Shown in pieces: positions 1,152-10,022 of a stretch of DNA of 64,000 nt. The notes beneath the pieces are model-generated. The model was not told the origin of the DNA, did no database searches, and saw nothing but the letters and a program-made list of their open reading frames with translations. A program made the translations under genes and the position numbers. Origin of the DNA: a virus (Duplodnaviria > Heunggongvirae > Uroviricota > Caudoviricetes). The first letter of the stretch is position 1, and each line of letters begins with the position of its first letter. The DNA lies in IMG/VR virus record IMGVR_UViG_2585427708_000005; one strand, given 5' to 3'.

Positions 1152-2150
1152 TTATCCGTTACCGCACGACGGTTTCTGCGTGATAAACGTCTCAAGCATC
1201 TTTTCCGCAATTGCCGACCAGGTGTGACACTGGACCTTTTCAGCATTTTTCACGCGATCAACGCGAGCAATAACCTCATCCCAATCAATCCGCGACTTGA
1301 TAACCATATGGTTCACCAAAGCCAGGCGATCTGGCGGAAGGCAATCGGGAGGCGTTAATACCAACGCCCCGCACATTGCCGCCTCAAGAACAGTTAATCC
1401 AAGGCTTTCGGGATGCGTAACGATAAAAACGTCACTCTTACGCAATTCAGCTGCAAATTCGGTTGCTGGCACCGGCGTCCGTCTGTATGGAGTTACCGAA
1501 ATATTCCCCGGATCAATGGTAACCAATCCATCATCAGTCAACGTTCTGGCCTCATACGGAACGGTCAGACGCTGAAGGTTCATAAGGATACTTAAGGAGT
1601 GATCAAAACCACTAACATCAAATGCAGCGTGGTCTACAAAAATACGCAGAACATCGTCTGTTTTGGTTTCCAGATGGAACAGATCCTGATTCGCTGCCCA
1701 TCCAACATGTTTGTTAAAGCGATTATGACGCTCTAACCTGCCGGGATTATCCAGGTACCGCCAGGTATCATCGCGGACAGTAAAAGTAATATCGACTGGT
1801 GCCGAATCCAGCATAGAACCGTCGTATACCTGGGCTACCCATCCAGTGAATCGACGACGCAGTTGCACTCCTATTTCCCTGGGCACCGTAGTAAAATACC
1901 GCAATCCTGGCGCTAAAATGGCTTTCGCAGAACACGAGGTCGCAGCGGTCAACACAGCTTCAACATAATCCTCCTGGCTTTCGACGCTGGGGGAATATGG
2001 ACGATGGTATTGCAATGTTACCCCTGCCTCACTAAAGGCGCAGGCCAGGTTATAAGCCCACATTTCCGTATATGTTTTCACATCACTGATAGCTTCAAAT
2101 TTTCGCCCAATGATCAGGATGTTCATCGGCTTTTCCTCATTCCATTGCAT
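1152..2150 (-). CDS. GT-B fold glycosyltransferase-like protein (332 aa), translationally coupled downstream of ban
   Basis: E-x7-E motif (ESLGLTVLEAAMCGALVL) typical of retaining GT4-type glycosyltransferases; start codon overlaps ban stop by 1 nt. Confidence 0.5.
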   Translation of the reverse strand: MQWNEEKPMNILIIGRKFEAISDVKTYTEMWAYNLACAFSEAGVTLQYHRPYSPSVESQEDYVEAVLTAATSCSAKAILAPGLRYFTTVPREIGVQLRRRFTGWVAQVYDGSMLDSAPVDITFTVRDDTWRYLDNPGRLERHNRFNKHVGWAANQDLFHLETKTDDVLRIFVDHAAFDVSGFDHSLSILMNLQRLTVPYEARTLTDDGLVTIDPGNISVTPYRRTPVPATEFAAELRKSDVFIVTHPESLGLTVLEAAMCGALVLTPPDCLPPDRLALVNHMVIKSRIDWDEVIARVDRVKNAEKVQCHTWSAIAEKMLETFITQKPSCGNG

Positions 2151-3520
2151 TAATAATCCTCTTGCCAGTCAGCACCGGCATAGTTATCAAACCGTGAGTA
2201 TTGGCCGTTAAAAGCCAATCTCACCGTGCCAATTGGGCCATTTCGTTGCTTACCGATAATCACCTCGGCAATGCCCTTCATTTCGCTATCCGGGTGATAA
2301 ACTTCGTCGCGATACAGAAACATGATCAGGTCTGCGTCCTGCTCAATTGCTCCTGATTCACGTAAATCTGAATTTACCGGTCGTTTGTCCGCACGCTGTT
2401 CAAGCGATCGATTAAGTTGTGACAATGCCACCACCGGTACTTGTAATTCCTTCGCCAAAGCCTTCAGTGAGCGAGAAATCTCGGCAATTTCCAGCGTTCG
2501 GTTATCTTGCAGCTCGGGGACGCGCATAAGTTGCAGGTAGTCGATCATAATCATGCTCAAACCACCATTTTCTTTATAAACACGACGAGCGCGGGAACGA
2601 AGCTCTGTAGGTGTCAGGGCGCTTGAGTCATCAATAAAAATATTCTGCTTGTCCAACAGAATCCCCATTGCGCCAGAAACCCGCGCCCAATCCTCGTCGT
2701 TAAGTTGCCCTGTTCGAATACGAGTCTGATCAACGCGTGCAAGAGAAGCCAGTGAGCGCATCATCAGTTGGTGGCTCGGCATCTCAAGGCTAAAAACCAA
2801 TACGGGCTTATCGTTACGGACTGCGGCATTTTCGACGAGATTCATCGCAAACGTAGTCTTCCCCATCGATGGGCGGGCGGCGACAATAATGAGATCGGAC
2901 GCCTGAAGTCCTGCCGTCTTCTTATTGAGATCGGTAAATCCGGTATCAAGCCCCGTTACACCATCATGCGGTCGCTGAAACAACTCTTCTATGCGAGATA
3001 CCGTTGCATCGAGAATGCTGGCGATATCTTTTGGACCACTACCGCTCTTTTGTCGTTTTTCAGCTATTTCAAAAACGCGGCGCTCGGCCATATCCAGCAA
3101 TTCATTGCTGCCCCTGCCATCCTGCGCATATCCAGCTTCAGCTATTTCATTTGCGACGGAAATCATTTCACGAACAACCGCGCGTTCACGAACGATATCC
3201 GCATAAGCACAAATATTTGCCGCGCTGGGCGTGTTCTTTGACATCTCCGCAAGGTACGCAAAACCACCGGCGCGTTCTAATTTACCGTTCTGTTCAAGTG
3301 CTTCAGCAAGTGTTATCAAATCAATCGGTTTGCCATGACTTAATAACCTCTCCATCTCACTGAAAATTTCACGATGAGCACTGGTATAAAAATCATCAGC
3401 AACTATACGATCTGCAACTTCATCCCAGCGGCAGTTATCAAGCATTAAGCCACCAAGTACAGCTTGTTCTGCACTAAGGGAATTTGGCATGGATTCAAGA
3501 GGGGATGCAGACATTAGCAC
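2150..3520 (-). CDS. ban: DnaB-family replicative helicase (Ban-like)
   Basis: 456 aa; N-terminal DnaB domain (AEQAVLGGLMLD), Walker A GKT (AARPSMGKTTFAMN), Walker B/arginine finger regions, C-terminal typical of DnaB; position after tRNA cluster as in P1. Confidence 0.9.
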   Translation of the reverse strand: MLMSASPLESMPNSLSAEQAVLGGLMLDNCRWDEVADRIVADDFYTSAHREIFSEMERLLSHGKPIDLITLAEALEQNGKLERAGGFAYLAEMSKNTPSAANICAYADIVRERAVVREMISVANEIAEAGYAQDGRGSNELLDMAERRVFEIAEKRQKSGSGPKDIASILDATVSRIEELFQRPHDGVTGLDTGFTDLNKKTAGLQASDLIIVAARPSMGKTTFAMNLVENAAVRNDKPVLVFSLEMPSHQLMMRSLASLARVDQTRIRTGQLNDEDWARVSGAMGILLDKQNIFIDDSSALTPTELRSRARRVYKENGGLSMIMIDYLQLMRVPELQDNRTLEIAEISRSLKALAKELQVPVVALSQLNRSLEQRADKRPVNSDLRESGAIEQDADLIMFLYRDEVYHPDSEMKGIAEVIIGKQRNGPIGTVRLAFNGQYSRFDNYAGADWQEDY

Positions 3521-3794
3521 TCCACCCAGGCGTGCTGAATGTCAGATATAATCGGCATACTCAAATCACTCCTAACGATATGAGTCATCACCAGAAAATC
3601 AGGATTAATGCGCCGGACTCTTCCCGGCTGTCACACCGAATCGCCAGGATGGTGAATCCGCAGTCCGACGCTATGAACGGGGCTTGCACATTCCGGCTAC
3701 CTGGTTTGTTGCCTGAGCTAGGGGAAAGGTTACCCCTTTAACGTCACCAGACCGCTAACGACGCATGTGCCAGACGCCGTGTTACAACCAAATA

Positions 3795-3870
3795 TGGTGG
3801 CCCCTACCGGACTTGAACCGGTGACCGTGCGATTATGAGTCGCCAGCTCTAACCACTGAGCTAAAGGGCC
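3795..3870 (-). tRNA. tRNA-Ile2-like (anticodon CAU, lysidine type; Met cannot be excluded)
   Basis: 76 nt, perfect 7-bp acceptor stem with one G-U, D-arm GCTCAGTGGTTAGAGC, anticodon loop CTCATAA, T-loop GGTTCAAGTCC, encoded CCA; near-identical in arms to E. coli ileX as remembered. Confidence 0.75.
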
Positions 3871-3897
3871 GGATTACTGCCAATTTTGCTTACGCTT

Positions 3898-4725
3898 TTA
3901 TTTCACCGGAACAAACGGAACAGCGGTATTACTGGTCATATACTGCGGTAATGTACCGTTCCATTTGTTGATCGCTTCCAAGTCCATAACACCGGGGTTC
4001 TGGCGCAGAGCTTCACCACGTAAACGAATGGCATCAGCTTCGGCCTGGGCTTTTGTGCGAATAGCATCAGCCTGTCCGGCAGCTTCCGCGCGCAGCATGT
4101 TGGCCTCTGCTTCACGTTGTTTGACCTCTTGCTCGCGTTGCAGGGTTTTTTGGTTTGCCGTGACTTTGGCGTTAATACTGTCAATAACTGTTGGCGGGTA
4201 TTCTGGCTTACCTACATAAGAGAGGCTCATCACCTGAATGCCGATTGGCGTCATTTCTTCCTGAATGTCTTTAAGGGCTGCATCAAGCAATTCAGATTTG
4301 CCACCGTCGATAAATTTGTCGGTGGTCATTTTGCTGGCTAATCGGTTCAGAGCATCTGCAACCTTCTGGCGTAGATCGGTATCAGTAATATCATCTACAC
4401 CTTTGCGATAGGTCTGAAATACCGTTGTGACTTTTGCTGGATCAACCTTGTAGGCTACGCCGATGTGGTAACCAATGGTTGTTCCGTCGCTCATCTGGAA
4501 GCTGAACGGCTCATCGTATGTCTTCATTTGCTTAAAGGTCGGGAAGATATAAACTTCAGTATTCAAGCCTGTCCAGTAGCGACCAACGCCAACTACTTCA
4601 CCGATACCTTTATCATCCCCCAGCTTATTTACTTTGATCCCTACGTTACCTGGCTCTACCCGATCGCATCCGGTCAGACATAAAGAACCCAAAATAATCG
4701 CTGCACTAATCAACGTTTTTTTCAT
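3898..4725 (-). CDS. SPFH/band-7 domain lipoprotein (275 aa)
   Basis: signal peptide with lipobox LCLTGC; SPFH-like core followed by Ala/Glu/Arg-rich coiled coil (QREQEVKQREAEANMLRAEAAGQADAIRTKAQAEADAIR). Confidence 0.65.
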   Translation of the reverse strand: MKKTLISAAIILGSLCLTGCDRVEPGNVGIKVNKLGDDKGIGEVVGVGRYWTGLNTEVYIFPTFKQMKTYDEPFSFQMSDGTTIGYHIGVAYKVDPAKVTTVFQTYRKGVDDITDTDLRQKVADALNRLASKMTTDKFIDGGKSELLDAALKDIQEEMTPIGIQVMSLSYVGKPEYPPTVIDSINAKVTANQKTLQREQEVKQREAEANMLRAEAAGQADAIRTKAQAEADAIRLRGEALRQNPGVMDLEAINKWNGTLPQYMTSNTAVPFVPVK

Positions 4726-4942
4726 TAATTAATTTCCTGGTTTTTTCACGAAAAAAGACTACTGCGAAAGCCGGGTAAATGAGCGCGAGAAGGACTCCCA
4801 ACAATACAAGTATTGTGCTGTTAGATGAGATCATATTTGGCAAAAGCCAAACATACAGAACCAGTGACACAATCAAACAGAGGACGGCATAAATATATAA
4901 CCGCACCCATAGCGTTCGACATTTGTTCGGATTGTTCTGCAT
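4706..4942 (-). CDS. small inner-membrane protein (78 aa, two predicted TM helices), overlapping start of SPFH gene
   Basis: hydrophobic segments YIYAVLCLIVSLVLYVWLL and ILVLLGVLLALIYPAFAVVFF; 20-nt overlap with downstream SPFH gene suggests coupling. Confidence 0.4.
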   Translation of the reverse strand: MQNNPNKCRTLWVRLYIYAVLCLIVSLVLYVWLLPNMISSNSTILVLLGVLLALIYPAFAVVFFREKTRKLINEKNVD

Positions 4943-5815
4943 CCTCTCACTCCATTATTTAACGAATAAAAAAGCTGCGGTGCCGGGTTCCTCCCGGTGT
5001 CCTTTGGCTGGTTATCCACCGTGGACGTGGAAACAAGGAGAAATAATGGACAGATATAACCATTTCCCCGCGTGCGCTTAGCCGCATTCACCGCAACGGA
5101 AAGAGCATTCTTGGTGGACCTGTAGATTGGGATATGAACCCGTTACAGGAGAATGCTCTTACCTGTTACGTGCTCCGTTTCGTGGAGCTAACGGCGGGTG
5201 ATCAGACCGCACCAGACTGGACTTATTTCAGCGTTATGCTCATGCCAGAGAATCAAACTGTGATGGTCGGTGCTGAACTCCGACACAGGGTTGTAGCAAG
5301 CCCCGCAAAGCGCGCACTACTGTAGTTGCGGCACATCAGCCTGTGCATTCACCACAATGTTGAGAACACTGGTTGTCACGCGGCAACGCAACATTTATTC
5401 GTAGATTGGGATATGACCCCGTTACGCCAGTGTTCTCAACGTTGTAGTTGTTATGCGTATTCTCTTACTAACCGCACACCAATACATTTCCCATCACGTT
5501 CATTTGTCTCGAAACGTGAATACTTAAGTTCGCCGTTAATAATCGCTGTTACAACCCGTATCCCGTTAAACGCCCACATATTTCGCTCCATTTACACACA
5601 TTACCAGTCGCCGGTTACGGTTCCGGCCAGGCCTCTTCCTCAACGGGGTGTTCTCCATACGGACTACCGTTTATTGGTCGTTCCTGCGGTTTATGTTGTG
5701 AAGCCAGATGCTTATCTTCTGGTTGCTTCTAAGATCTGCACTTCATCACAACGGTAAGAGCACTCGATGCATTTAAGCCAGGCCCCATAAGGGAGAATGC
5801 TCTTACCTGTTATGT

Positions 5816-5891
5816 TGGTGCCGATTAACGGGATCGAACCGCTGACCATTCGCTTACAAAGCGACTGCTCTACCAACTGAGCTAAATCGGC
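5816..5891 (-). tRNA. tRNA-Thr (anticodon UGU)
   Basis: 76 nt; acceptor GCCGATT/AATCGGC, D-arm GCTCAGTTGGTAGAGC, anticodon loop TTTGTAA, T-loop GGTTCGATCC, encoded CCA. Confidence 0.75.
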
Positions 5892-5895
5892 AATG

Positions 5896-5982
5896 TGGTG
5901 GGGAGTGATGGAGTCGAACCACCCGAGTCGCAATGACAGTAGATTTACAGTCTACCCCGCTACCCCTACGGACTAACTCCCC
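5896..5982 (-). tRNA. type II tRNA-like gene, tRNA-Tyr (GUA)-like, D-arm atypical
   Basis: 87 nt; perfect acceptor GGGGAGT/ACTCCCC, anticodon stem-loop GTAGA-CTGTAAA-TCTAC, long variable arm resembling E. coli tRNA-Tyr, T-arm GGTGG-TTCGACT-CCATC, encoded CCA. Confidence 0.5.
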
Positions 5983-5987
5983 TAAAG

Positions 5988-6062
5988 TGGCGATGGTGGG
6001 TGGATTCGAACTACCGACCAGTTGGTTAACAGCCAACTGCTCTACCGCTGAGCTACACCATC
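5988..6062 (-). tRNA. tRNA-Asn (anticodon GUU)
   Basis: 75 nt; acceptor GATGGTG/CACCATC, D-arm GCTCAGCGGTAGAGC, anticodon loop CTGTTAA, T-loop TTCGAAT, encoded CCA; one A-C mismatch in T-stem. Confidence 0.7.
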
Positions 6063-6727
6063 ACTTGCCGGGTACGTCTCCGGCGAGGGCTTCCACCTCC
6101 GTATGCTTTTCGGCGCACCGCGCCCTGGCTGCAATTCGGTAACAGGGGATGCATAACCCTGGCTTCCAGCGTGATTAGCGCCTTCAGCATGACGGGATAT
6201 ACCCGTAAATTCGTGGAACTGTACCCAAAGTGCTGTTAAGCACCGCTGTTACGCTGAAAAGAAAACGCAACAGGAAAGGACGCTGACCAACAGATGGCCC
6301 CTTCTCGTTCATCTGGTTAATCACACCAGCGCCCTTACCTGTTGTGCCTCCCCGTTCCCTAATACACAGACGGGGACACTCTGCGGTCGATTTTTTGACG
6401 GGGGACGACTCATACCCCATGGCATCTGGCTTCTTAGGCCGCTACCATCATCAGATCATCGTTTGCATTTACTTTAATGGTCAGTTTCTAAACCGCCGCA
6501 AAGTCGCTAACCATGACGAAAACCCTGAAAAAAACGCCCACCCGAAGATGGGCAAACTGGACGCTCGTAACGCACTTCGGCGTTGCCACTTAGGCGCATG
6601 GTCAACCTGGCAACTCGGTGGTTTGTCTGGGAGGACTAGGCCCAGCCATGCTTACCGCCGCGCCTGTCGCGGCTAACAGCTAAATCGCTCTATAAATCAC
6701 GATTCATTGAGGTGATATTACACTAAT

Positions 6728-6744
6728 AAATTTATTAGAGCAAT
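6728..6744. promoter_or_regulatory. C1 repressor operator-like site (AAATTTATTAGAGCAAT), upstream of tRNA-ban operon
   Basis: 17/17 match to reverse complement of P1 C1 operator consensus ATTGCTCTAATAAATTT. Confidence 0.6.
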
Positions 6745-9700
6745 ATACCCAAAACGTCATGAGCTACACCTCGAGTGTCCCCCTTACAAGACACAGAACG
6801 TCTGGCAAAAAGAGGTTCCACTCTGAAGCCACTGTCATGATAAAGCTCTCTGATGTTTGGCGCGCCACTGTTAGTAATGAGAACCTTTGCACCTCGACGA
6901 TGAGCATCCGTCAACAGAGACACCAGGCGTTTTTGCTCTTCAAACTTAAAGTCATGACCGGAATAGTTCGTGAATCCCTCTGTATTTGGAAGCGGTTCAT
7001 ACGGCGGATCGCAAAAGATGACATCTCCTTCTCCGGCAGCTTCAATCACCGCTGCAAAATCACCGCATACAAACTCAGACCGCCCTTCCGCACCGAGGAA
7101 GGCTTCCATCTCCTGTAATGGGAAATACGGAGTTTTATACTTCCCATAACCGACATTGAACTCACCGGCCTGGTTGTAACGCGTCAATCCGTTAAAACAA
7201 TGTCGGTTCAGGAACAAAAACGCCGCTGCGCGATGTAAATCATCATAGACTTGTTTGTTAAACGCATTCCGTACTGCCAGGTATCCTTCCTGTGTGTTGT
7301 AGTCCTGGAAGAAACGATGTGCCAGAGTGATAAGTGAATGCGCCTCGCGTTGCAGAGTCTTGTAAAAGTTAATCAGGTCAGCATTCACATCATTTAGCAG
7401 ATTTTCCTGGTATCCGGCATTCATGAAGACAGCTCCGCCACCAACGAAAGGTTCAATCAGGCGCTTCCCTTCTGGCAAATAGCGAAAGATTTGTTCCAGA
7501 ACACCAAATTTTCCACCAGCCCATTTGAATATGGACCGTTCGAATTCTGCCGCTGGTTTAACTTTTCGCTCTTTTGTTTCACTTCCTTCTTTCTGCCGAC
7601 ATACGGCCTTAGTAATCCGATCGCCAATCCAGCGCATTACTGGTATTGCCATACTATTGCCGATCGCTTTGTAACGCGGTCCGTCAGCTGCAAGCATCGC
7701 GGCCTCTTCTTCGCTTAAATCTGGATAGTGATTGCGAAGGTATGCCAGTTCATCTGAAGAAACTTTTTTACGCTTTTCCGTCGGGATCAACGTATGCCCC
7801 TCAGGAAAACCTTGCAGCCTTTCACATTCGACAGGGGTAAGACGGCGGACAGCTACTTCTGCGTTTCTTACTTCATAGCAAACAGCTGTTGGATTTTTAG
7901 CCATTAGAGATGGTGAAGTATTCTTAGTTGCAGCATGTTGTGTACCGCTCATACGCTCAGGAAAAGCCAATGTAACAAGATGCTCATGGCTTTCTTGCTC
8001 ACGTGCCCGCAATGTACCATGCCCTTCTGACCAAAAACCTGCTCCTGTGCTGCTAAAAACGGCAAGGTCAGTGGCATCTTTAAAATCTCTTGCCTTTACT
8101 GTCGATGCGGTTTCATCGTCAATATATTCCCCAAATGCTGCCATCCTGAAAGCGTTTACGGCTTTCGTCGATTTCATACCGGGTGGCATGTCAGCGTGTA
8201 GGCATGGATTTAGGCTTTCGCCACTGATTGCAGCGCCATTTGCAATAATGGCGGAAGCGATTTCCTTCTTTTTTCGGCTCGGCGCAATATTCCGGCGCAC
8301 GCCTTCGAACTCAAAAAGTACCGTTGCGGGATCGAGATCTGTTCGAGCACTTGCGACAACAAACACGCGTCGGCGTCGTTGTGCCACTCCGAAGTATTGG
8401 GCATCAAGGATTCTCCAGGCCACTTTTCGCTGCGGTCCATAAATACAACCACACTGCGGCCACTTTGGAACATGGCAACCGGTTTTGCCATCCCACCGCC
8501 AGAACGCGTTGCTTTTTCCTGATTCAGGTCGATCACCTGGTTCAAATGGCACATCTTCTCCAGCCAATCCGGCAAGGAAACATCCGAAGGCGTTATCTGC
8601 CGATGACAAGACTCCTGGGACATTTTCCCAGACGATAACGGCTGGTTTGAGAAATGACTCAGCCCGTTTGTCGTCAATTGCATTTGCAAGCTCCACATAC
8701 TTTAAAGTTAGCGCGCCACGCTCATCATCAAGCCCACCACGTAATCCCGCGATACTGAATGCCTGACAGTTATGGACCACCGCACCATTGAGGATATAGG
8801 AATGATCACCTTCGACTTCTATGTTGTATACAGTATCTAGGCCTACCGATTTAAACTCTTTGACTGTTCGTAAAAGCATTCCATGAGCCAATCTTGATTT
8901 ACGTGACAATTTCTGCGGGCAGATTGTTACCTGATAATAATTCCGTTGATTTACCACGCGATCCTCGATCACTTTTTTGGGCTCAACTTCAATAAAGCTG
9001 ACCGAAGAAACATAACCACAAGTCTGTGACAACCCCGCAACGCCCCAAGCAAGCGCAGAACTAACACTATTAATTCTAAATCCCGCTTTACCACTTGGTG
9101 TCCCATCAGTATCAAGATAGCCTTGTAAAAACACATGACGCAATGGATGCGACATCACCCATGCAGGGATACGCTTAGCATGGCTTAACTCGCCAAAATG
9201 TTCATTAAGCCAATTGGCATAACACGTATCATTCAAGGTTACTTTGATGCTCCCTCGGATTTCGCTTGCCACGGAAAATATGTTTTCTGGTATGCGGCAA
9301 TGAAACTTTCTCAATTTCTGGCAATTTATGCCAAAAACAACCGCCTTCTTAGATTTACCTCTCCATCTCCTAATATATCCATCGCCAACATAAGCGCCCG
9401 CAAGATACATAGCCTGTTCTTCAGACAAGAACCGAGAACAAATATCTGGAAATGCAATATTGAAATTAGTTAGAGCGCACCATTGATATCCCGGCATATC
9501 ACATGCTGCTCGCCATTCCGGTTCAGACAACAACTCTCTCTTAAAATATGTGCCATTTTTCCGGGTGTTTTGGGCTTTCCACCGAACAGCCAGGAAGGGA
9601 TGGTCATTGGTTGTTCTTATACCTAAAGGCTGCCCAACGGCATTAAGTAACCCCGTATTAGCTATTTTTGAACCAACTCTTTTTACTTGTTGTAACCGCC

Positions 9701-10022
9701 CGAGATGACTGACTACGTAATCACCAGGGCAAACATTTTCTATTGGTTTATAGCCATTTTTACAAAGAACCATATGCCCCGCGGTAAAACATGGTGTTCC
9801 CCCGACGAGCACGTCAGGGGATTCGATTTCCCCAGCCAAGACTTTTTTGGCAAGTTTTTTCATGTCGCCAAGGTTGGCAACATGGGGCCAGCGGAGCGCA
9901 AGAACGGCCGATGGAAAAGGCTCGATTTCAGCAAACCACGCCGGACGCATACCCAACGGTTCCCAGGCAATACTCGCGGCTTCAATTCCACTGCAAACAG
10001 ATCCATAGCACAGCTCTTTCAC
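6735..10022 (-). CDS. dmt: bifunctional DNA methyltransferase (N-terminal C5-cytosine MTase, C-terminal Dam-like N6-adenine MTase) interrupted by an intein
   Basis: GTG start overlapping rdgC stop; C5 motifs ENV (VIVWENVPG), [10 protein letters not shown], split PC-Q motif; Dam motifs [10 protein letters not shown] and DPPY; 1095 aa = ~754 aa extein + 341 aa insert. Confidence 0.85.
8769..9791 (-). other. intein (341 aa) with LAGLIDADG homing-endonuclease domain inside dmt
   Basis: insert begins CFTAGHMVL (Cys1), contains TxxH block (TTNDHPF), two LAGLIDADG motifs ([13 protein letters not shown]; [13 protein letters not shown]), ends ...[20 protein letters not shown] followed by Cys+1; excision restores [12 protein letters not shown]. 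Confidence 0.75.

Follow-up and report, generated by a model that had tools for sequence, protein, structure and literature searches.

The two genes described here form a pair on the minus strand of IMGVR_UViG_2585427708_000005, an IMG/VR record of a caudoviricete phage from which a stretch of 64,000 nucleotides (nt), hereafter the window, was analysed. In order of transcription they encode a 78-amino-acid (aa) protein with two predicted transmembrane (TM) segments (4706-4942) and a 275-aa lipoprotein of the SPFH/Band-7 family (3898-4725). The genes overlap by 20 nt, across the SPFH start codon, and are probably translationally coupled; start/stop overlaps of the gene pair range from 4 to 20 nt across the loci examined. 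A tRNA gene with anticodon CAT, homologous to trnI (tRNA-Ile2) of phage P1 by ARAGORN, Rfam and the P1 annotation, begins 27 nt past the SPFH stop codon (3795-3870, minus strand). Downstream of the pair and in the same operon lies ban, encoding a DnaB-like replicative helicase (2150-3520, minus strand; 97.7% identity to P1 over the block), while a tRNA cluster, Asn-Tyr-Thr by ARAGORN and Rfam (5816-6062, minus strand), lies about 870 nt upstream. The gene order of the P1 ban region is kept, with baseplate gene 5, dbn, ban and tRNA(CAT) on one side of the pair and the tRNA cluster and dmt on the other. Over positions 3500-6200, identity is 99.5% to the P1-like phage vB_EcoM-Ro157c2YLVW and 98% to RCS47. 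An earlier model-made reading from the letters alone (the sequence-only reading) had placed both open reading frames (ORFs) at these positions and had described them as coupled genes set between tRNA genes in the ban operon; the overlap, the flanking tRNA genes and the position of ban bear that description out.

The 275-aa product is a member of the SPFH/Band-7 superfamily. Residues 22-208 match the Pfam Band_7/SPFH family (PF01145) with E=9.7e-31 (107.6 bits against a cutoff of 23.6), and the protein matches the PHROG profile phrog_200, 'lipoprotein', with E=1e-112. The N-terminus reads MKKTLISAAIILGSLCLTGC|DR, a canonical lipoprotein signal that ends in the lipobox L-T-G-C; signal peptide and lipobox together make up residues 1-20 (MKK-TLISAAIILGSLC-LTGC), with the Cys20 codon at 4666-4668, and the protein is predicted to be processed as a lipoprotein of the Lgt/LspA type, acylated at Cys20. 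Taking as a lipobox any signal peptide that ends in [LVI][ASTVI][GAS]C, we found one in 114 of 150 representatives of the SPFH family, the remaining members having an uncleaved N-terminal TM segment. The residue at +2 is Asp (Cys20-Asp21-Arg22), and Cys-Asp-Arg is present in every one of the 95 enterobacterial homologues, out of 120, that show the lipobox-VEPG pattern. Under the Lol-avoidance rule of E. coli, Asp at +2 after the lipidated Cys keeps a lipoprotein in the inner membrane, and we therefore predict that the phage protein is retained there. The gene is already annotated in many records, as 'SPFH domain-containing protein' or 'lipoprotein', and several GenBank phage records label its product, wrongly, 'serine protease'.

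An AlphaFold2 (AF2) model built on a 92-sequence alignment (pLDDT 93, pTM 0.74) comprises a beta/alpha SPFH core at residues ~22-175, one unbroken helix of 65 residues (178-242), and then a less confident C-terminal tail with a conserved K-W-x-G-x-L-P motif. Searched against the PDB with Foldseek, the model found HflK/HflC as its best matches (E ~1e-13, a level that prohibitin, erlin and stomatin reach as well), followed by prohibitin, erlin, stomatin, flotillin, vault protein and, at rank 37, QmcA-YbbJ, with a probability of 1.00 for HflK/C, PHB1/2, erlin1/2, stomatin and flotillin. The top matches consist solely of full-length, dome-forming SPFH proteins.

The 78-aa partner has two hydrophobic segments, at residues ~12-34 and ~43-64, carries basic residues at either end, and matches phrog_1130 ('membrane protein', moron category) with E=6.4e-16. 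The main structural claims of the sequence-only reading fared well: the partner has its two TM segments, the lipoprotein its lipobox and C-terminal coiled coil (the modelled helix 178-242), and the profile search, in which a lack of SPFH homology had been named as the refuting outcome, returned a strong SPFH match. Pfam holds no family for the window partner, nor for the corresponding proteins of phages N4 and P88 and of Stx phages, and in PADLOC-DB v2 the partner has a chance-level match only (E=0.023). Its turn, LLPNMISSNST, is conserved and probably periplasmic. The corresponding turns read LLPSMVSALDS in N4, LVPFLISMKDT in Stx phages, IGPELISAAST in Dyella and QLPSLISSDED in Leptospira, yielding a family motif, P-x-[LM]-[IV]-S-x-x-[STD], whose alignment holds in Enterobacterales, Dyella, Sutterella, Leptospira and Saprospirales.

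To define how regularly the two genes occur together, we examined 80 genomic and 80 viral loci for a same-strand ORF that ends at the SPFH start and has two hydrophobic segments flanking a P-x-[LIVMFAW]-[LIVMFA]-[SN] turn. A motif-bearing partner lies directly upstream of the SPFH gene in 136 of the 157 assessable loci; several of the partner-less loci are threshold artefacts, and others belong to a distant Bacteroidota/Kapaibacterium branch (at most 36% identity) with a different upstream gene. By motif and gene order, then, the small protein is a conserved two-TM family of its own, found almost always directly upstream of SPFH. In the distant SPFH-lipoprotein homologues of Cytophagales and other Bacteroidota (~32% identity), which have no hairpin partner, the upstream position is taken by a conserved ORF of ~100 aa. 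Its product has a signal peptide and, at the C-terminus, a ...LRI motif, and may represent a different partner family. The 78-aa gene is generally unannotated in RefSeq and PLSDB records, where matches covering both genes list SPFH alone. One P1-like contig, IMG/VR UViG_2529293038_000017, has ~2 kb between the partner ORF and the SPFH gene (~4001-6001), which may be an insertion sequence that uncouples the pair.

Natural gene fusions tie the two proteins together further. A library of 1.84 billion representative proteins holds 215 clusters of the SPFH family at E<1e-30 and 935 at E<1e-10, and about 19 of the best 150 representative clusters are in-frame fusions of 330-390 aa that join the two-TM domain, a signal/lipobox segment and SPFH; two more fusions were found among the genomic and viral loci. 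In the AF2 model of one of them (pLDDT 89), the SPFH fold comes after three helices at the N-terminus. This order, two TM segments, a third hydrophobic segment and then SPFH, places the SPFH domain outside the cytoplasm and predicts an N-in/C-in hairpin. The fusions also argue for a functional link between the separate proteins and imply a 1:1 stoichiometry.

Pairwise blastn against the P1 locus delimits the partner and SPFH genes as a cassette of 1,088 bp (3880-4967, minus strand) that stands in place of P1 tciC-tciB-tciA (716 bp), with flanks that stay 97.5-97.7% identical to P1 as far as 3879 and 4968. P1 has no sequence to which the SPFH pair aligns, and no homologue of tciA or tciB was found anywhere in the window. 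The P1 cassette encodes a TerB-domain protein, a small two-TM protein of the DUF3927 family and a 35-aa peptide, and is annotated by homology as a tellurite/colicin resistance or phage inhibition system (PMC9603915). It resembles our pair in its slot and strand within the ban operon and in combining a larger protein with a small membrane protein, but the two are unrelated in sequence and fold, TciA being a cytoplasmic TerB-domain protein. PLSDB has 189 plasmids with the SPFH pair, almost all of them of P1-like size, and 191 with tciABC. The tciABC locus is one of eight hypervariable regions of P1-like phage-plasmids and is missing in about half of them (PMC9603915), which explains the position of the pair inside the ban operon as that of a cargo slot. 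Judged from these alignments, the pair is exchangeable cargo of the tci slot in the C1-repressed ban early operon. The finding is to that extent in part commonplace, with a frequent cargo gene occupying a slot of documented variability, and the sequence-only reading, right about the operon setting, overstated matters in calling the presence of the pair there unexplained, since P1 holds tciABC at this position, the slot is known to vary and the module is common. We also considered whether the pair corresponds to the P1 genes plp and upl and rejected this: those genes are carried by the opposite strand, and their alignment falls at 4968-5921 (ORFs 5134-5757).

How the cassette is expressed can be predicted from its surroundings. 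Only 25 nt, including the ribosome-binding site, separate the cassette edge from the partner ATG, which argues that the cassette has no promoter of its own; with neither promoter nor terminator inside it, it would have to be read from upstream, a view supported by the lack of terminator-like sites. A perfect C1 operator, ATTGCTCTAATAAATTT, lies inside a 17+17 palindrome at 6715-6746, the position that the bivalent operator Oban (Op72) and the Pban promoter region occupy in the P1 annotation, at the 3' end of dmt. This region is the probable start of transcription for the operon that holds the pair. The pair is probably co-transcribed with the tRNAs and ban after C1 derepression, because all lie on the same strand, the operon is homologous to the annotated P1 ban operon, and a terminator scan detected no convincing site on the minus strand between 6535 and 2150 (there is a weak 5-bp stem within the coding overlap). 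A consensus promoter scan of 3400-6900 returned zero sites and missed the known Pban as well, so that it is uninformative on internal promoters. The terminator scan also returned a strong terminator-like hairpin (8 pairs and a T7 run) at 6535-6554 (minus strand), after a dicF-like region in the presumed ban operon leader; the ban transcript must either extend past it or undergo processing at this point.

The module is widespread and recurs in comparable settings. The P2-like phage P88 carries the SPFH gene (86-87% nucleotide identity) in its early operon, behind a gene for a 67-aa membrane protein with a 4-nt overlap; in many Stx-converting phages the SPFH gene adjoins xis/int and is overlapped by 4 nt by an unannotated 62-aa two-TM ORF; and SSU5-like temperate phages have the pair too. 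At least 587 IMG/VR contigs encode an SPFH relative, and 32 of the best 80 are P1-like with the identical arrangement. Of 5,426 complete E. coli genomes, 460 have the SPFH gene; 310 of its sites are chromosomal and 201 are on plasmids. A protein-level search found homologues in 432 of 50,697 phage records, virulent phages included: N4 gp20 is 61.6% identical, the proteins of rV5-like and related large phages ~48%, and that of one jumbo phage 73%. Further homologues occur in N4-like Klebsiella and Erwinia phages and, at lower identity, in Bruynogheviruses, Burkholderia phages, crAss-like phages, phiCbK and haloarchaeal viruses.

The N4 proteins gp19 (a 68-aa membrane protein) and gp20 (a 278-aa lipoprotein) constitute the same two-gene module, with homologues in N4-like and rV5-like phages. 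The likeness extends to the sequence of gp20, the turn of gp19 and the overlap of the genes in an early/middle block; N4 differs in being virulent and unrelated to P1, and in gp20 the lipid-modified Cys is followed by Tyr at +2 and Asp at +3. In the literature on SPFH/band 7 phage lipoproteins and N4 gp20 we found annotation-level mentions only. In N4 the pair stands after the RNAPII genes, a capsid decoration gene and gp18, which is a P22-gp17-like 'superinfection exclusion' gene, and before replication-type genes, while at Yersinia and Kluyvera phage-plasmid loci the pair follows genes for a gp32-like single-stranded DNA-binding protein (SSB), a 5'-3' exonuclease and RecA. In view of this recurrence, a place in early or replication blocks is the rule rather than an anomaly, and the presence of the module in virulent phages argues for a role in lytic growth.

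Cellular genomes hold the pair as well. In ~25 genomes of Dyella/Rhodanobacteraceae it lies amid conserved genes for the large and small subunits of ribonucleotide reductase, BlaR1/BlaI-type proteins and hemerythrin, and five Leptospira genomes have it in another conserved neighbourhood. These Dyella and Leptospira neighbourhoods contain only unrelated housekeeping genes and give no clue to function, and their conserved synteny suggests an old cellular two-gene unit that phages captured repeatedly.

Full-length SPFH proteins of known structure form, to our knowledge without exception, a closed or nautilus-like membrane dome; it marks off a microdomain and in many cases surrounds a client. Such dome-forming proteins are illustrated in PMC12624060, together with a regression of subunit number on wall-helix length (y=0.1782x+10.22); a helix of 65 residues corresponds to ~22 subunits, an extrapolated and approximate figure, as CC1 and CC2 may be merged in the monomer model. 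We propose that, after C1 derepression, the pair would be transcribed with the tRNAs and ban and its translation coupled. The SPFH protein would be exported and receive its lipid at Cys20, and Asp+2 would hold it in the outer leaflet of the inner membrane, where some 20-24 subunits would oligomerise into a dome on the periplasmic face, tethered by as many (~20-24) lipid anchors. The N-in/C-in hairpin would join at a ratio of ~1:1, its conserved periplasmic turn touching the SPFH base, and the hairpins might line or fence the patch of membrane inside the dome, the part played for QmcA by the TM portion of NfeD. In the most speculative step, the dome would alter the inner membrane early in lytic growth and so protect or insulate the envelope of the infected cell, candidate targets being DNA entry by superinfecting phages, pore-forming colicins and premature membrane collapse. 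The pair would then fill the ecological niche of the TerB-type tciABC cassette whose place it takes.

Taken as a whole, the reading that the tci slot here holds a promoter-less membrane module which forms a periplasmic SPFH/hairpin dome, made early in lytic growth and serving envelope protection or exclusion, has in our estimate a probability of roughly one half. Protection or exclusion is favoured as the role because the genes are early, occur in virulent phages, interchange with a TerB-type cassette and, in N4, follow a superinfection exclusion (sie)-like gene.

Several points weigh against this reading. The oligomeric state, partner contact and stoichiometry of the dome are extrapolated from models and from solved relatives. 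The role in exclusion or protection would follow by analogy, from the slot shared with a TerB cassette, the sie-like neighbour in N4 and early timing, which is typical of exclusion genes. The Tyr at +2 of N4 gp20, in place of Asp, means that inner-membrane retention is not uniformly predictable across the family; the component models of PADLOC-DB v2 gave zero matches for the SPFH protein; and the chromosomal copies of the pair argue for a general membrane function over a phage-specific one. A recent paper calls the role of phage SPFH lipoproteins unclear and their presence in phages unexplained (PMC13239085, 2026). A broader version of the proposal would make the pair a widespread class of phage 'shield' at the inner membrane, in which a periplasmic SPFH dome with a fence of TM hairpins walls off patches of membrane early in infection and so blocks DNA entry by competing phages and colicin pores or counters membrane-targeting abortive-infection effectors, interchangeable with tciABC and common to temperate and virulent phages from N4 to Stx. 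This version we put forward tentatively and regard as doubtful.

The resemblance to HflK/HflC suggests a different role, in which the dome mimics HflK/C, captures or competes for the periplasmic domain of FtsH, and so retunes substrate degradation, the choice between lysis and lysogeny, or the quality control of membrane proteins; the CII and CIII proteins of phage lambda act with Hfl on degradation. In E. coli, HflK/HflC share with our protein the SPFH fold, the long wall helix and the predicted orientation on the periplasmic side of the inner membrane; they are its best fold matches, and HflK is the nearest solved chain by sequence, if a weak one (E=2e-4). The idea of an FtsH/Hfl mimic also has a precedent, having been raised for an SPFH protein of a Pseudomonas satellite prophage (PMC4936722). 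However, the protein scores far below the cutoffs of the NCBIfam models of HflK (TIGR01933; 23.2 bits against 159.4) and HflC (TIGR01932; 24.7 bits against 134.4), and prohibitin, erlin and stomatin are nearly as good structural matches. HflK and HflC are moreover a heteropair of two paralogues that enclose FtsH and are held by N-terminal TM anchors, whereas our locus has a single SPFH gene, a predicted lipid anchor and, as the conserved partner, a TM hairpin rather than FtsH. The module also occurs in virulent N4, which makes no lysogeny decision. We consider a mimic of HflK/C unlikely.

Attention could instead be placed on the small protein. If it were a holin- or channel-like pore that the SPFH dome sequesters or gates, the pair might set the time of lysis or avert premature depolarisation. 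Stomatin gates channels, SPFH cages around channels or proteases are among our Foldseek matches (PDB 9zd2, 7wi3), and the partner resembles class II holins and T4 Imm in size and topology. Its similarity to the holin profile phrog_565 is weak, however, and not significant (E=0.099). The pair also lies in early operons, distant from lysis cassettes, its neighbours here being tRNAs and a helicase; the natural 1:1 fusions suit a structural subunit more than a caged client; and chromosomal copies are conserved in contexts outside phages. Control of lysis or of a pore therefore seems to us an improbable function.

The frequency of the SPFH gene in pathogenic E. coli and in Stx phages might point to lysogenic conversion, with a surface- or vesicle-exposed lipoprotein from the lysogen acting on the animal host. 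A precedent is PM0222 of Pasteurella multocida, a prophage-encoded, HflK/C-like protein of the SPFH superfamily with a reported phenotype, the activation of TLR1/2 via vesicles (PMC9872710). It is likened to our protein by description, not by sequence, and its role lies in the interaction of the lysogen with the animal, not in lytic growth. With just 25 nt of cassette-specific upstream sequence, no promoter of its own and a position behind the C1 operator, the pair is poorly placed for expression in a lysogen; Asp+2 predicts retention in the inner membrane; and virulent phages and environmental bacteria such as Dyella carry the module as well. We judge a virulence role very unlikely.

The E. 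coli QmcA-YbbJ complex (SPFH-NfeD, PDB 8z5g), solved as 26 heterodimers at 1:1 (PMC13086221), is like our pair in joining a small membrane protein and an SPFH protein in one operon, and its ratio parallels that implied by the fusions. The sequence-only reading had suggested such an NfeD-like partner, but that the pair is a classical SPFH-NfeD module with a short NfeD homologue can practically be dismissed, its gene order (small membrane protein, then SPFH, coupled) resembling ybbJ-qmcA and yqiJ-yqiK and QmcA-YbbJ figuring among the structural matches, yet with no PF01957 match at E<=1 for the window partner or at E<=0.01 for three homologues, no room in 78 aa with two TM segments and short tails for the OB-fold that defines NfeD and that YbbJ has, and an SPFH cage that in QmcA is cytoplasmic and here is predicted to be periplasmic. 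The pair is, rather, a distinct variant of the SPFH-plus-partner theme.

The neighbouring DNA shows further differences from P1 and a set of structured elements. Three related long stem-loops lie on the ban-sense (minus) strand at 5078-5176, 5340-5452 and 5735-5818, with minimum free energies (MFE) of -35.9, -46.3 and -33.9 kcal/mol and z-scores of -3.7, -5.6 and -5.0, respectively. They carry a T-arm-like sequence, GGTTCATATCC, and are antisense within the ORFs annotated as upl/plp in P1. Those ORFs have zero Pfam matches and may be spurious ORFs over structured RNA or over elements that process the ban transcript. Relative to both P1 and RCS47, the upl/plp region has a 161-bp insertion at 5449-5609. 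A sub-threshold Rfam match to the STnc100 small RNA (sRNA) at 4976-5095 (minus strand; E=5.6e-6, 38 bits where the gathering score is 47) lies just upstream of the cassette boundary, in sequence common to P1. The tRNA-Tyr(GTA) gene (5896-5982, minus strand), between tRNA-Asn and tRNA-Thr, is extra with respect to P1 and RCS47. Finally, dmt (6735-10022) encodes a Dmt methyltransferase of 1,095 aa, against 754 aa in P1, lengthened by a 341-aa intein (8769-9791, minus strand; Pfam Hint_2 and LAGLIDADG_3) in motif IV of the C5-methyltransferase. Motif IV reads GTPCQAFS in P1 and GTP|CFTAGH...VVHN|CQAFS here, and this placement within GTP|CQAFS makes the catalytic Cys the +1 extein residue; the dmt gene of RCS47 is equal in length to that of the window.

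SPFH proteins are universal membrane organisers whose roles in bacteria are poorly defined, and those encoded by phages have been noted as puzzling for twenty years. The present analysis makes of the pair a defined two-component system, whose topology can be predicted, whose partner bears a conserved motif and whose two parts occur naturally fused; tciABC serves as its natural allelic alternative, and P1-like phages and N4 as tractable models. If the pair is an exclusion or anti-defence device, it would represent a new structural principle in the conflict between phage and host, and it would provide a minimal bacterial SPFH cage for mechanistic study.

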